35,264 bases of DNA from a virus (taxonomy: Duplodnaviria; Caudoviricetes), in the IMG/VR virus record IMGVR_UViG_3300028025_000966, positions 1-35,264 of that record. One strand, written 5' to 3'. Of this stretch, positions 1,543 through 18,759 are shown piece after piece. How positions within the stretch are numbered: position 1 is the stretch's first letter; each line of letters begins with the position of its first letter. The notes under the pieces are model-generated. The model was not told the DNA's origin. It searched no databases and worked only from the letters and a program-made list of their open reading frames with translations. A program made the translations under genes and the position numbers.

Positions 1543-2745
1543 ATGGCAAACGGATTATTAGATTATATAAGTGGCTTTGGTGCAACTCCTCCAGAGTATT
1601 TGGGCGGTCTGCTTGGTCAAGAGGCTGTAGACAAGTTAAAAGGTCGTGCAGCTACTACTGGTATCGCCAATGCTGTATTAGGTTACCTAGCAGCACCTAA
1701 GAATCAAAACTTAGGATTAGGTCGTATCATTGGTCAATCACTACAGGCTGGTATGCAAGGCGCACAAGGTGTCTACGATAATGCTACACAAGATTACTTA
1801 GCTCAACAAAGAATTGCTGATTTACAGCGTAAACAAGCTCAACAATCACAAATGCAAAACATGATTGCTGGCATTAAAGACCCTAACGAAAGATTATTTG
1901 CCGAGTTAGCTCCAGAACAATATGTTGCTGCTAAATTAAAGCCAACAGAACGTAAATTTGAGAAAATTGGCAATCAATTAGTTGATGTAAGTAGTGGCAC
2001 TCCTACTGTCGCATTTACTGGTACAGAAGAAGTAACTCAACCATCTGCTGTGCAAGAATATAACTTTGCTAAATCTCAAGGTTATACTGGCTCGTTTACA
2101 GACTGGAAGAAAATGCAAAAACCTGAAGGTGTGAGTGTAACTTATGGCGCACCTGTATCTGGACTTGATGCTCAAGGCAACCCAGTATTCTTCCAACCAG
2201 CTAAAGGTGGTGGCGCACCGGCTATTATTCCTGGTGTAACTCCACAACCAGCAGTAGTAGCAGCACCTACTGAATCACAAGCTAAAGCAGCAACTTTTTA
2301 TAGTCAAATGACAAGTGCTAGTGATGAGTTGAAAAATTTAAAAACAGAAGGTTTTAATCCAAATACTTTAACAAATCAAGCTCAAATATCTATCGCTGGT
2401 ACACGTGGAGGAGCATTTGTGCCACAAGAAGCACAAAGAGCAAGACAAGCTCAAGAACAATGGGCAGAATCATTCTTACGCATTAAAACTGGTGCTGCTG
2501 CCACAAAAGATGAAGTTGATAGAAACGTCAAAACATTCTTCCCATCCATAGGTGATAAACCAGAAGCGGTTGCTCAAAAAGAACGTGCTAGAGCAAAAGC
2601 AGAACAAGATGTTTTAAAAATGACTAAACCAACTGCTCAACAAAAACCAAATTTTACAGTTAAAGACCAACAAGCATTGGATTGGGCAAAACAAAATCCT
2701 AATGACCCAAGAGCAACACAAATTAAACAACGATTGGGGTTATAA
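1543..2745 (+). CDS. DNA ejection/transfer protein (P22 gp20-like position)
   Basis: 400 aa Q/A-rich with AVQEYNFAKSQGYTGSFTDW and ESFLRIKTGAA segments typical of podophage injection proteins; AGGA RBS. Confidence 0.65.
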   Translation: MANGLLDYISGFGATPPEYLGGLLGQEAVDKLKGRAATTGIANAVLGYLAAPKNQNLGLGRIIGQSLQAGMQGAQGVYDNATQDYLAQQRIADLQRKQAQQSQMQNMIAGIKDPNERLFAELAPEQYVAAKLKPTERKFEKIGNQLVDVSSGTPTVAFTGTEEVTQPSAVQEYNFAKSQGYTGSFTDWKKMQKPEGVSVTYGAPVSGLDAQGNPVFFQPAKGGGAPAIIPGVTPQPAVVAAPTESQAKAATFYSQMTSASDELKNLKTEGFNPNTLTNQAQISIAGTRGGAFVPQEAQRARQAQEQWAESFLRIKTGAAATKDEVDRNVKTFFPSIGDKPEAVAQKERARAKAEQDVLKMTKPTAQQKPNFTVKDQQALDWAKQNPNDPRATQIKQRLGL

Positions 2746-4317
2746 ATGGCAGAATTTAATCCAGATGAGTATTTACAATCTAATGAGTTTAATCCTGATG
2801 AATATTTAGGTGTTACTCCAACTGTATCAGTTACAGCAAAAAGACTACCACCACAAAGACCTATGTCTGAAGAATTAATGCGCCAAGCAGGATTAACTGG
2901 TCGCTATGGTTTAGAAGGACTTGGTTCTATTGTTGATTTAGCACAAGCACCTATTCGTGGCGCAATCAATCTTGCCATGCCTAAAGATAGGCAATTGCAA
3001 CCTGTTTCATTAGGTGGTTCTATTGCTGATATGTTAGGTTTGCCACAACCAGAAACTGGAACTGAAAGAGTGGTTGGCGATGTAAGTCGTGCTATTGCTG
3101 GTACTAGTGGAGTCATGAAATTGGCTGGTGGATTATCTCCTACATCAGCAATTGGTCGTAATGTTGCAACATCTTTATCTGCCAATGCACCTACACAACT
3201 TGCTGGTGCTGTTGGTGCTGGTGGTGCTGGTGGCTTAACTAGAGAAGCTGGTGGCGGTGAAGTAGCACAAATGCTTGCTGGATTAGGTGGAGGTATGGCT
3301 GGTGGTGCTTTAGTTTCACCAAAACCAATTGGCTTATCAAAAGAACAATTACAAAACATAAACAAAGACAAACTATTAAATACTGCACAAAAAGCAGGTT
3401 ATATAGCTTTGCCAAGCGATGTTGGTGCTGGTAAAGGTGCAAAAGCACTTGAAACATTGTCTGGTAAATTTAAGTCTGAAGAATTGGCATCATCTAAAAA
3501 TCAAAATGTTGCTAATAATTTAACTAGAAAATATCTTGGTTTGCCTGAATCAGCTCCTTTGAATGATGATACATTCTCTGCATTACGAGATACTTATGGT
3601 GAACCATACAGATTGGCATCACAACTTCCAGCCGGTCAAATTGGCACGACATCAACTAAATCAATGGCTACTGGTAAAGTATCAACCATGCCTGTTATGA
3701 AAAATGGCGCACAAATTGTTGATGAATTAAAAATGGCTAGAGATGATGCACGTGCAGCATGGAAGTCATATAATTCTGGTACAGCAAATAATCCTACTGA
3801 ATTGCGTAAACAAGCTCAAGCATCAGAAAAACTTGTTACTCAATTAGAAAAACAATTGGATTCTTTAGCTCAATCAGCTAATCAACCAGATTTGCTTAAA
3901 GCATTAAATGATGCAAGACGCAATATAGCAAAAGTATATACAGTAGAAAAAGCTACTATTGGTGAAAACCTAATTGATTACCGTAAGATTGGTAAAGCAA
4001 TTGATAAAGGCGCACCAGTTACAGGTGAGTTAGCATTAGCAGGTAAGTTTGCTAAAGAGTTCCCACGTGTGAATAAACCAGTTGCTTATGAGCCTACAGC
4101 ATTCACTTTGCCGGATGTATTTGCATCTGGTGTTGGTCTTGGTATTGATGCTTTAACTGGTGTTCCATTTGCTAGTGGATTTCCTGCTGCTCGTGTAGGT
4201 AGTCGCTACTTAATGGAATCTGCACCATTCCAGCAAAGATACGTTAAACCAAAATATGACCCATTAGTTACTCCGTACTTACCATACGCAGGATTATTAT
4301 CAACACAAAATCAATAA
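2746..4317 (+). CDS. Large DNA ejection protein (P22 gp16-like position)
   Basis: 523 aa; duplicated N-terminal EFNPDEYL; glycine-rich membrane-like segment; last gene before lysis cluster. Confidence 0.65.
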   Translation: MAEFNPDEYLQSNEFNPDEYLGVTPTVSVTAKRLPPQRPMSEELMRQAGLTGRYGLEGLGSIVDLAQAPIRGAINLAMPKDRQLQPVSLGGSIADMLGLPQPETGTERVVGDVSRAIAGTSGVMKLAGGLSPTSAIGRNVATSLSANAPTQLAGAVGAGGAGGLTREAGGGEVAQMLAGLGGGMAGGALVSPKPIGLSKEQLQNINKDKLLNTAQKAGYIALPSDVGAGKGAKALETLSGKFKSEELASSKNQNVANNLTRKYLGLPESAPLNDDTFSALRDTYGEPYRLASQLPAGQIGTTSTKSMATGKVSTMPVMKNGAQIVDELKMARDDARAAWKSYNSGTANNPTELRKQAQASEKLVTQLEKQLDSLAQSANQPDLLKALNDARRNIAKVYTVEKATIGENLIDYRKIGKAIDKGAPVTGELALAGKFAKEFPRVNKPVAYEPTAFTLPDVFASGVGLGIDALTGVPFASGFPAARVGSRYLMESAPFQQRYVKPKYDPLVTPYLPYAGLLSTQNQ

Positions 4318-5952: not shown

Positions 5953-7113
5953 ATGGCACTAACACAACAACAATTTATGCAACTAATGGGTGGCAAACGT
6001 GAGCCAGTAACGGCATCTCTTGCATCTGTGTTAGATTTAATTAAAAAACCATTAGATTATTATGCTGTAGATAAGCGAGTGCCATTAGTAGGCGGTCAAT
6101 CAGCAGCAGACTTAATTGGTCTTAGTGGTACACAATCACTAGTGCAAGACTTTAGCCAAGGCAAGCCAATGATGCGTGACGGTTTGCCTGATGAGCGTTT
6201 TATTGATGCTGCCGGCATGATACCTATGATTAAACCTGCTGCCGTTGGTGCAGGACAGGCTGCTAAATATTTAGGTAAAGAGGCATTAAGACAAGGCTAC
6301 GAAGGTACTGGTTTGCTTGGTAAGATTGCACCAGACATTAAAATGCCAATTACAGCATGGCATGGCAGTCCTTACAGATTTGATAAGTTTGACCCTACTA
6401 AGATTGGTAGTGGAGAAGGCGCACAAGCATACGGTCATGGATTATATTTTGCTGAAAATCCTAAAGTTGCACAATCTTATGCAAATATAGAACCTGCTGG
6501 TGAAATAGCTTCTCCAAGACGAACAATTTTTGGAAAAGAAGTAGAACCAAGAACACCTGAATATAAAGCAGCGCAATTAGTTGATGAATTAGGATTAAAT
6601 AAAGCTAAAAAATATGTTTCAGATTGGGTAAAAAATTCAAGACCAGATGAAATAGATTTTTCTAGTAACATAAACAATATATTGTCTTCAGTAAATAAAA
6701 AATCAGAAGTTAAAAATTTAGGTACAAGTAATTTATATAAAGTTGATATTCCAGATACGCATATAGAAAATATGTTAAATTGGGATAAACCAATAAGTCA
6801 GCAAACTCCTAAAGTAATTGCTGCAATAAATAAAACAAAGAAATCTCTTACAAGTGATGATTTGGCAGAATTAGGTGGCGATGCAGGATTGCTATATGGT
6901 AAAGACATAACACCTGCACAATTTTTAAATACATGGGAAATTATTAGAGGTCAGCCTAATGTTGGCGAATCACTATTAAATCAACATGGAGTTAAAGGTG
7001 TAAAATATTTTGATAATCCTAGCAGAGATGCAATGAAAGGCACTCAAAACTTTGTAGTGTTTGATTCAGACATAGTTAAGATATTAGAGCGCAATAAACA
7101 ACCAATTAAATAA
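5953..7113 (+). CDS. Protein with C-terminal ADP-ribosyltransferase-fold (ART-PolyVal-like) domain
   Basis: AWHGSPYRFDKFD..KIGSGEGAQAYGHGLYFAENPKVAQSY ... LYKVDIP ... GVKGVKY ... NFVVFD; N-terminal third resembles virion-protein low-complexity sequence. Confidence 0.7.
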   Translation: MALTQQQFMQLMGGKREPVTASLASVLDLIKKPLDYYAVDKRVPLVGGQSAADLIGLSGTQSLVQDFSQGKPMMRDGLPDERFIDAAGMIPMIKPAAVGAGQAAKYLGKEALRQGYEGTGLLGKIAPDIKMPITAWHGSPYRFDKFDPTKIGSGEGAQAYGHGLYFAENPKVAQSYANIEPAGEIASPRRTIFGKEVEPRTPEYKAAQLVDELGLNKAKKYVSDWVKNSRPDEIDFSSNINNILSSVNKKSEVKNLGTSNLYKVDIPDTHIENMLNWDKPISQQTPKVIAAINKTKKSLTSDDLAELGGDAGLLYGKDITPAQFLNTWEIIRGQPNVGESLLNQHGVKGVKYFDNPSRDAMKGTQNFVVFDSDIVKILERNKQPIK

Positions 7114-17145: not shown

Positions 17146-17744
17146 TAGTTTTTCGTAAAAAAGTAGATGCATGGGTAGTAACAGCTAGGGATTCGGAATG
17201 CCAGATCATTCACATTGGTGACTACAAAACACAAGAAGAAGCCAAGGCAGCAGAGCAAGCATTTAGAGATAAAAAACTAGCAGACTCATACGCACAACAA
17301 GAAGCAAAGCTAGACAGGATGGCAAAAGAGATGATTGCTAGATATAACGTCTACCTAGAGTTTTGCGTACTACCTAAGACTTTAACAGACATAAAGCAAC
17401 AAATAGATGATGACAAGAATACTGCATCTAATACGATTAAGAGCTTAATGGCTAGAGGATTTATGAAAAGCATTGTTGTTAACGATACCGGCACACGTAA
17501 GTACTACAGCTTTGTCACTACCAAGCTAATGAGCTACGATGATGCATTAGAGTATGTGTCACCTAAGAAATACAAAACTAAGGTTAGCGAAAACACACCA
17601 ACAATCGCTGGTGCTAGAGTAATTAATTTTGATGACAGAAAATTAAGCAATCTATATATGACTCAACGTGCAATAGATCGGGCTAACATGAAATCACCTA
17701 AGAACTATACAAGTGGCGCAACAATGTCAGGGAGTGACTGGTAA
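17142..17744 (+). CDS. Putative DNA-binding protein (AP2-like N-terminus plus winged-helix-like region)
   Basis: HIGDYKTQEEAKAAE; PKTLTDIKQQI..TASNTIKSLMARGFM. Confidence 0.5.
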   Translation: MIVFRKKVDAWVVTARDSECQIIHIGDYKTQEEAKAAEQAFRDKKLADSYAQQEAKLDRMAKEMIARYNVYLEFCVLPKTLTDIKQQIDDDKNTASNTIKSLMARGFMKSIVVNDTGTRKYYSFVTTKLMSYDDALEYVSPKKYKTKVSENTPTIAGARVINFDDRKLSNLYMTQRAIDRANMKSPKNYTSGATMSGSDW

Positions 17745-18001
17745 TGAAATTGTCTTCAGGACGTGTAATAAAAGTTTCTAGCGATGGGTCAAGCGCAAGT
17801 TACTACGAGTTACCTAAAGATGCTAGTGAGTTGCAAGACTTGATTAGCGCAAAGAATATGAACGCACAGATCGGTGAGATATTTCGTGAGTGCTACCGTT
17901 ATGGTCAGGCTTCACATTGTGACGAGATAAGGGGAATTAAAAAGATACTGTTCTATGCTAATGCTGAACTTAAAAGATTAGCCAGCCAAGAACAGTCTTG
18001 A
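17744..18001 (+). CDS. DUF3310-like small protein
   Basis: SDGSSASYY, GEIFRECYRYG, IKKILFYANAEL. Confidence 0.5.
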   Translation: MKLSSGRVIKVSSDGSSASYYELPKDASELQDLISAKNMNAQIGEIFRECYRYGQASHCDEIRGIKKILFYANAELKRLASQEQS

Positions 18002-18008
18002 CCGGCTA
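17972..18008 (-). terminator. Intrinsic terminator downstream of pqqA
   Basis: Minus strand TAGCCGGTCAAGA-CTGT-TCTTGGCTGGCTA (13 bp with two G-U pairs valid only on the minus strand) followed by ATCTTTT. Confidence 0.7.
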
Positions 18009-18028
18009 TGTTTAAACAAATGTTTAGA

Positions 18029-18100
18029 CTATTTGTTCATTACGTACATAGTAACTTCAAAGCCAAAACGCATTTCAGTAGCTGCTGGTGATGTCCACAT
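18029..18100 (-). CDS. pqqA: Coenzyme PQQ precursor peptide PqqA (23 aa)
   Basis: MWTSPAATEMRFGFEVTMYVMNK*: canonical MWxxP...R.GFEVTMY with the E-x3-Y core; AGGAG RBS just upstream of ATG. Confidence 0.96.
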   Translation of the reverse strand: MWTSPAATEMRFGFEVTMYVMNK

Positions 18101-18203
18101 GATAAATCTCCTGTTGATTAAGTGTACACATTAGCGTGTACGTGTTTACATTCTGCTCTTTTTTAGACACGTTACCATAGTTAAAACCATTAAAAGTGAT
18201 ATA

Positions 18204-18232
18204 TTGACCACGATTGATTAGTATGGTAAAGT
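18204..18232 (+). promoter_or_regulatory. Late operon promoter
   Basis: TTGACC-17-TAAAGT with extended -10 TG; upstream of all structural genes. Confidence 0.7.
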
Positions 18233-18247
18233 CACGTAACGATTTAT

Positions 18248-18367
18248 AGTAGTGCGAGTCTGCATTACTCTTTTATTCCAGCGACTGTACATCGCTAGAA
18301 AGTAACCATTGCCCCTCAGACGTGATAGGGTAGACTCCGAGGTAGTCTAGTTGCGAGAACCTCCTAC
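18248..18367 (+). ncRNA. Structured late leader (four hairpins, possible pseudoknot)
   Basis: Stems 18248-55/18262-69, 18276-84/18292-300, 18312-18/18323-30, 18331-36/18344-49; loop GAGGT is complementary to ACCTC 18359-63. Confidence 0.5.
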
Positions 18368-18384
18368 TTTTTAAGGGAATAACT

Positions 18385-18759
18385 ATGGCAAGAGGTTTGT
18401 TAGACACAAAAACTACTATTGGCACAGCCAAAGAGATTGCTGACAACACCAAGAATGCCATTGATAACTATTCTCTAGGAGCAATGAACCCAAGTTTGCC
18501 TAATACCGAGTACTGGGCAAAGATGGCTAAGATGTTCCGAATCACACCAGCAGAAGCCAAACGTCAACGATGCGGTAACTGCGAATACTACGACAACACT
18601 CCCGAAATGTTTGAGGCTATGGAAGCCATCCCACTAAACAAGTACGACCTGTATGATGGTCAAGCTCAACGTGGATGGTGTCATAAGCTAGATTTGATTT
18701 GCCATAACTCACGCCTATGCTCTGTATGGGAACGTAAAGACTTTGAAACCGAGGATTAA
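18385..18759 (+). CDS. Cys-rich metal-binding protein
   Basis: RCGNCEYY...GWCHKLDLICHNSRLCSVWE. Confidence 0.7.
   Translation: MARGLLDTKTTIGTAKEIADNTKNAIDNYSLGAMNPSLPNTEYWAKMAKMFRITPAEAKRQRCGNCEYYDNTPEMFEAMEAIPLNKYDLYDGQAQRGWCHKLDLICHNSRLCSVWERKDFETED

Follow-up and report, generated by a model that had tools for sequence, protein, structure and literature searches.

Phage-encoded pqqA is already known as an auxiliary gene, and its reach is wider than published. In its available text, Coutinho et al. 2020 (PMC7678222) describes PqqA in VP_266, an uncultured T4-like population of Lake Baikal with a predicted Methylophilaceae host, and proposes that the peptide boosts methanol oxidation; methanol dehydrogenase and SAM-cycle genes are reported alongside it. 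The same text states that phage P19250A encodes none of the auxiliary metabolic genes of VP_266, and the tables of that paper may list more viral pqqA genes. The accessible part of PMC13188868 likewise lists viral pqqA among P-cycling, phosphate-solubilisation genes. The original prediction had left undecided whether phage pqqA had been seen before; as described in 2020, it cannot count as a first sighting.

Like VP_266 (PMC7678222, available text), the phage in the window (the whole 35,264-nt stretch of DNA analysed here) encodes PqqA, has a predicted Methylophilaceae host and invites a proposal based on methanol oxidation. VP_266 is T4-like and carries methanol dehydrogenase and SAM-cycle genes, whereas the present pqqA is on its own, in a phage of 35 kb with an SU10-type capsid; that text describes no promoter or box for VP_266, whereas a host-type box is found here. 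The phage gene also resembles the orphan pqqA of Methylophilaceae (TIGR02107/PF08042; PMC4109929), with which it shares 22 of 23 residues, a monocistronic layout, an RBS, a leader hairpin, a terminator and an upstream box. The host genes have two sites 23 nt apart, whereas the phage has one box in the register of site 2; further differences are the viral location and the existence of some alleles that are virus-only. The psbA-type genes of cyanophages are host energy-pathway genes spread over unrelated phages that infect a single host group, and some copies have homing endonucleases close by. Phage pqqA is like them in these respects; it differs in that its product is a consumable RiPP substrate, neither an enzyme nor a structural subunit, encoded by 72 bp that are usually uncalled and assigned to no PHROG family.

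Two elements appear, from sequence comparison, to be new here: the host-type box before viral pqqA and the unannotated copies in cultured phages. No description of either was found in the literature covered, subscription papers lying outside that coverage. The pqqA promoters of Methylovorus were reportedly treated by Ge et al. in 2015, in work that may touch on the box. In their available text, the papers on MEP301, MEP401/402 and Venkman make no mention of pqq, and the Melnitz paper mentions PQQ solely as a medium supplement (PMC9004378, PMC8024684, PMC10580990, PMC8163748); the accessible part of PMC9851590 belongs to the literature basis as well.

The cassette and its place in the phage genome

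The virus record is 98% complete and classed as linear, and its two ends overlap near-exactly over about 134 nt. A Pfam/PHROG scan of its ORFs detected an SU10-type capsid and portal, terminase, NinB, YqaJ and SSB, and the nearest cultured relative of the terminase is that of OM43 phage Venkman (63.5%). Among the scanned ORFs there was no integrase, no evident methanol dehydrogenase gene and no Pfam/PHROG match to PqqC or PqqD, and searches of the genome with PqqB and PqqE profiles returned nothing. These results agree with the original prediction that the genome has no pqqB-E, and at the locus itself pqqA has no adjacent pqqB-E genes as in an operonic pqqABCDE cluster. Where the late region ends, an ORF at 5953-7113 (plus strand) encodes a protein of 386 aa whose match to an ART-PolyVal-like ADP-ribosyltransferase is weak (30.7 bits against a cut-off of 31.2).

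The pqqA gene (18029-18100, minus strand) encodes a 23-aa PQQ precursor peptide of the Methylophilaceae type, identified from its translation and from family profiles. Its Glu15-x3-Tyr19 core lies within an ORF of the 23-24 aa typical of PqqA, and the peptide scores 34.4 bits with TIGR02107 (cut-off 20) and 37.9 bits with PF08042 (cut-off 21.1), so that the proposed check against the PqqA HMM was passed. A Shine-Dalgarno sequence, AGGAG, is located 7 nt before the ATG (18108-18112, minus strand); a comparable motif accompanies 186 of 187 viral pqqA copies. Further upstream, a 5' leader hairpin (18122-18143, minus strand; -7.6 kcal/mol) begins where transcription is predicted to start (about 18143), and leader structure with z below -2 was found in 43 of 60 viral leaders. 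Behind the gene is a terminator-like hairpin with a U-rich tail (17969-18008, minus strand), whose 13-bp stem spans 17979-18008. As minus-strand RNA this hairpin reaches -23 kcal/mol (z -6.25; equalled by 0 of 200 shuffles), and it is strand-biased because similar 50-nt windows give -20.0 on the minus and -11.9 on the plus strand. It has a U-tail of modest size and extends over the final codons of the convergent ORF.

That convergent ORF (17744-18001, plus strand; 85 aa, no Pfam/PHROG match) ends the nin-like region. On the other side are a sigma70-like divergent promoter (18204-18232, plus strand; a consensus match only), which faces the packaging and head genes and stands back to back with the predicted pqqA promoter, and a divergent ORF of no known family (18385-18759, plus strand; 124 aa) that served as the anchor for finding related loci. 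The original prediction had described a PqqA peptide with an AGGAG RBS and a strand-specific terminator of its own, placed antisense between the nin-like region and the late promoter, and each of these elements was recovered. These features make up an intact pqqA that stands alone and has promoter-like and terminator-like elements of its own. The leader of the late operon (18233-18380) is long and contains a hairpin at 18248-18269, with no Rfam match in the window; in distant relatives (L199, L205, L220), non-coding leaders of 200-300 nt lie upstream of the anchor gene.

Host and phage copies of pqqA

In a bacterial pattern scan covering 122 loci, the VMNK-ending form of the peptide occurred in Methylotenera, Methylophilus, Methylobacillus, Methylophilaceae and Ca. 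Methylopumilus, and in two unclassified Pseudomonadota records. The window peptide is identical to the commonest host peptides at 22 of 23 positions, the one difference being in the leader. The phage peptide is therefore of Methylophilaceae type, as had been supposed. All 101 Methylophilaceae genomes contain pqqA, 98 of them with at least two matches (median 4); the available text of PMC4109929 gives 3-12 pqqA copies against one pqqB-G set. The phage thus adds another copy to a gene that its hosts have already amplified.

An assembly chimera of phage and host DNA is excluded by bridging contigs, by relatives with the same insertion and by the copies in cultured phages. Junctions were compared in 4 of the 24 listed DNA runs (X2, X3, X6 and one other). 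Two X2 contigs free of differences cover 17842-18076 and 18047-18308 and between them cross both junctions; the pieces shown from X3 and X6 bridge one or both. In public RNA runs, represented by contigs only and with host and phage, and RNA and DNA, inseparable, a depth spike over pqqA corresponds to host and other-phage copies.

Eighty related loci were fetched by means of the neighbouring anchor gene, 48 of them with at least 93% anchor identity and 32 more distant. Every close relative with enough upstream DNA (33 of 33) has pqqA at the same locus, compared with 6 of 29 informative loci below 93%. When 10 of the 23 empty-site records were searched whole, pqqA was found elsewhere in 7 (6 of the 7 that are at least 90% complete); one of the two near-complete relatives classed as linear, G002 (97% complete), is without pqqA. 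In three loci (L152:2300-3085, L168:3065-3853 and L202:3047-3859), the pqqA promoter is separated from the divergent late genes by ORFs that resemble DNA methyltransferases by eye, with the box kept.

A tblastn search of 50,697 phage records gave 13 matches, nine of which are cultured Methylophilaceae phage records (P19250A, MEP301, Venkman, MEP401, MEP402 and four of Melnitz) that represent four lineages, with pqqA annotated in none. P19250A carries an intact pqqA, contrary to the statement in the available text of PMC7678222. The remaining matches were one uncultured spring phage, two "Acinetobacter phage MD-2021a" records (E 0.05) and one coliphage (E 10). In the same collection there was no convincing match in phages of other PQQ producers, e.g. 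Pseudomonas, for a short query that misses diverged peptides. HIM624-A, pHIMB624-A, MEP431-434 and Venkman EXVC038S are also named in the taxonomy and stand outside the count of cultured carriers. In the seven phage regions examined, ORF and RBS are complete and pqqA is either uncalled or hidden under a wrong-strand hypothetical CDS, as in the GenBank annotations of Melnitz (L348:2461-2556) and ctXG6705 (L349:2067-2195). In Melnitz, pqqA abuts a tRNA-Leu gene. Together with the phage-gene flanks, the bridged junctions and the relatives, these cultured phages place the cassette in a true viral context, as expected of an auxiliary metabolic gene.

The pqqA peptide is under purifying selection. 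Among 27 distinct alleles at the locus, uncorrected pairwise pS and pN are 0.39 and 0.07, and among the 21 canonical alleles 0.27 and 0.017, i.e. pN/pS is about 0.06-0.18; synonymous change far exceeds amino-acid change, and where the site is empty the gene is also kept elsewhere. A scan that used a pattern for the N-terminal half only, so that Glu and Tyr were not required, retrieved 120 viral copies, all of which are 23-codon ORFs with Glu15 and Tyr19; loss of the core or frame in related phages, which would have told against the gene, was not seen. By extrapolation, an estimated 2,700-3,000 IMG/VR stretches (stretches, not genomes) match C-terminal patterns of the peptide. The genes beside viral pqqA are varied and include T4-like genes, lambdoid recombination genes and several capsid families. 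With tblastn queries from five hosts, no match to PqqB, PqqC, PqqD or PqqE was obtained at any of 228 viral loci; at 51 of these the flanks are only about 300 nt long.

Two unusual groups of viral alleles were observed. Alleles whose core reads E-x-T-A-Y and whose 3' half is recoded (L143, L147, L158, L181, L439-L464) occur in 26 viral stretches, about 1% of the estimated viral copies, and in 0 of 361 Methylophilaceae genomes. Homing-type/HNH endonucleases adjoin 4 of 19 such loci and 3 of 75 canonical ones (p 0.03), or 3 of 19 and 3 of 75 at a common threshold (p 0.09), counts in which the loci are non-independent and from which 7 of the 26 variant loci were dropped for short flanks; this is a hint, and only that, of escape from homing endonucleases as the cause of the variants. 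A distinct class of PqqA, with RLGFE[VI]TMYF and no box (L004, L011, L013, L019, L026, L030, L037, L045, L053), in some cases adjoins capsid or virion genes and likely belongs to phages of other PQQ-making hosts.

The upstream box and a candidate regulator

Motif discovery in 54 distinct upstream regions of host pqqA yielded a 17-bp inverted repeat, CT(A/C)ATGA-W3-TCAT(T/G)AG, with a log-likelihood of 487 as against 66-80 for shuffles. It lies about 110-140 nt before the ATG, and a weaker second copy follows 23 nt downstream. The box is present in 49 of the 54 host regions, a count that is circular since the matrix was built from them. With this matrix, built from hosts only, the viral test is non-circular: 57 of 100 distinct viral upstream regions reach at least 8 bits, compared with 1.9% of shuffles and 1 of 95 downstream controls, and the other 43 fall below that threshold. 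The viral boxes cluster at -80 to -100. Among cultured phages, the box scores 14.8 in P19250A, 13.3 in MEP301, 18.2 in Venkman and 19.0 in Melnitz, while MEP401 and MEP402 have none. In Venkman and ctXG6705 (L346, L349), the box lies about 100-110 nt before pqqA and its left arm, when read on the other strand, looks like a Shine-Dalgarno sequence; in Venkman this sequence precedes the divergent gene gp27. A -10-like hexamer is found 44 nt after host site 1 in 31 of 48 regions, and for the viral site the spacing is 21 nt, in 25 of 50; because 44 less 23 is 21, the viral box stands in the register of host site 2. This placement of an inverted repeat, at a fixed distance upstream of the -10, is the one expected of an activator site for a NarL-type response regulator.

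In the window, the predicted activator site is a host-type box at 18177-18193 (minus strand), 21 nt upstream of a predicted -10 hexamer, CAGAAT (18150-18155, minus strand). With the host matrix it scores 7.2 bits, narrowly short of the threshold of 8; in a viral model of box plus -10, trained on 43 viral sites with close relatives excluded, it ranks first of 70,442 positions (19.3, the next being 9.6). The original prediction, which is supported as regards the stand-alone pqqA, its host type, its recurrence and its selection, had missed this operator/promoter region (18150-18193) and the copies in cultured methylophages.

An exact-pattern scan of the hosts gave 373 matches in 61 of 61 genomes, compared with 26 for a reversed control, and most of the sites inspected precede pqqA. 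One site in Methylopumilus universalis (L387:1500-1516) lies between divergent genes resembling those for a formate dehydrogenase subunit and a molybdopterin oxidoreductase, and may mark a second regulon member. No box of at least 8 bits was found before xoxF/mxaF-family (PQQ-dehydrogenase-family) genes at 16 loci, one of them scored on a different ORF, which rules out a general methanol-regulon site; the regulon is therefore not simply "methanol oxidation".

In methylotroph-like Burkholderiales and in Methylophaga, box-positive pqqA often adjoins genes for a NarL/UvrY-type regulator and a UhpB/NarQ-like kinase. Such a pair lies beside 11 of 16 box-positive and 1 of 28 box-negative non-Methylophilaceae copies (p 6e-6), a value that is overstated because one locus was counted twice, the queries were taken from two box-positive loci and the genomes are related. 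Each of 61 Methylophilaceae genomes, out of 61, has exactly one copy of the regulator (72-100% identity), and in this family the pair adjoins none of the pqqA loci examined. One such candidate pqqA activator is encoded at G011:C1:545654-546289, with the kinase gene upstream (L431); in two genomes the kinase partner shows HAMP- and PAS-like regions by eye. The pair scores below every NCBIfam equivalog cut-off, and a search of solved structures with the regulator returned VraR only. PedS2/PedR2 and MxcQE are presumably examples of NarL/UvrY-family two-component activators with HisKA_3 kinases. The pair found here resembles such activators in its regulator and kinase families and in its link to PQQ metabolism, but differs from the named systems in falling below the equivalog cut-offs, and is set beside them by family only. 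We regard it as a candidate activator that may act through the box.

Role of the phage-borne gene

Our main reading, to which we give a probability of roughly 0.7, is that the cassette works as an auxiliary metabolic gene: a host regulator would switch on its transcription, and host Pqq enzymes would turn its peptide into PQQ. Since a host-type box precedes phage pqqA, a host regulator is likely used to keep PQQ supplied during infection. A NarL-type response regulator of the host, partner of a HAMP-PAS-HisKA_3-type kinase, would bind the box beside the -35 region and activate host RNA polymerase at the phage promoter, the phage having presumably retained only the promoter-proximal one of the two host sites. 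By established chemistry, which we infer applies here, PqqD and PqqE cross-link Glu and Tyr and other Pqq enzymes complete PQQ, one peptide being used per cofactor; the pathway is summarised in the available text of PMC12997753. The extra PQQ would keep periplasmic XoxF/MxaF methanol dehydrogenase loaded and so sustain energy and C1 supply during infection, and we infer a benefit through methanol oxidation. The accessible part of PMC5120137 gives xoxF as the top OM43 transcript; if host xoxF expression stops in infection, extra PQQ has less to load. Counting against the main reading are the lack of an evident methanol dehydrogenase gene among the scanned phage ORFs, the sub-threshold score of the window's box on the host matrix, the 43% of viral copies below that threshold, the absence of a box in MEP401 and MEP402, and the relative G002, which has no pqqA.

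PQQ has antioxidant activity, the box marks copies of pqqA and not xoxF/mxaF, and the hosts hold further PQQ-dehydrogenase-like genes; the cofactor might accordingly be made as proposed, with the benefit lying in redox protection of the infected cell or in other quinoproteins. We consider this unlikely, as all cultured carriers found infect methylotrophs, with xoxF as top transcript (PMC5120137, available text), and the short query gave no convincing match among phages that infect other PQQ producers (e.g. Pseudomonas). Slightly less probable again is that PQQ plays the proposed role while a different factor, e.g. Fur or a LysR-type protein, recognises the box, or that the box is a mere remnant of a captured host promoter. 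The 15-bp core of the box does resemble what we take to be the centre of the Fur-box consensus, and one host copy (L417) is divergent from a gene with a Fur-like N-terminus by eye, but of the seven exact sites in Methylopumilus universalis three are at pqqA and none precedes a recognisable iron-uptake gene. The 43% of viral copies under threshold would suit a remnant, against which the fixed register of box and -10 across unrelated phages argues.

The original prediction had offered substrate supply or titration of host PqqD/PqqE as alternatives. The first is favoured because Glu and Tyr are intact in 120 of 120 copies, so that the peptide should be processed. A decoy that lowers PQQ synthesis would find a place for the virus-only E-x-T-A-Y alleles, but these are about 1% of viral copies and the window peptide departs from the commonest host peptides at a single leader position; we think a decoy very improbable. 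Least credible of all is that the 72 bp are kept as DNA, as a target for recombination, integration or homing, with the peptide incidental. Many near-identical copies in hosts and the endonucleases beside some viral loci are compatible with such a target, yet synonymous change greatly exceeds amino-acid change, RBS and promoter are retained, no integrase was found among the scanned ORFs, and the T4-like phage Melnitz carries pqqA too.

A broader formulation of host-regulated substrate supply is that pqqA is a near-core, overlooked gene of unrelated Methylophilaceae/OM43 phages, mostly wired through a one-site host operator to a two-component system dedicated to supply of the PQQ precursor. We hold this tentatively, at a little short of even odds. 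If true, box and peptide would mark methylotroph-infecting viruses in metagenomes, with pqqA serving as a host marker for the estimated 2,700-3,000 stored viral stretches; the Methylophilaceae concerned (LD28, OM43) are abundant methanol oxidisers. The box points to an undescribed pqqA-specific host regulon with a candidate regulator, which bears on PQQ production. If the reading holds, the four cultured phage-host lineages would allow testing of a 72-bp auxiliary gene and of the idea that PqqA supply is limiting for PQQ synthesis, and the virus would be one that plugs a cofactor substrate into the demand-sensing circuit of its host.
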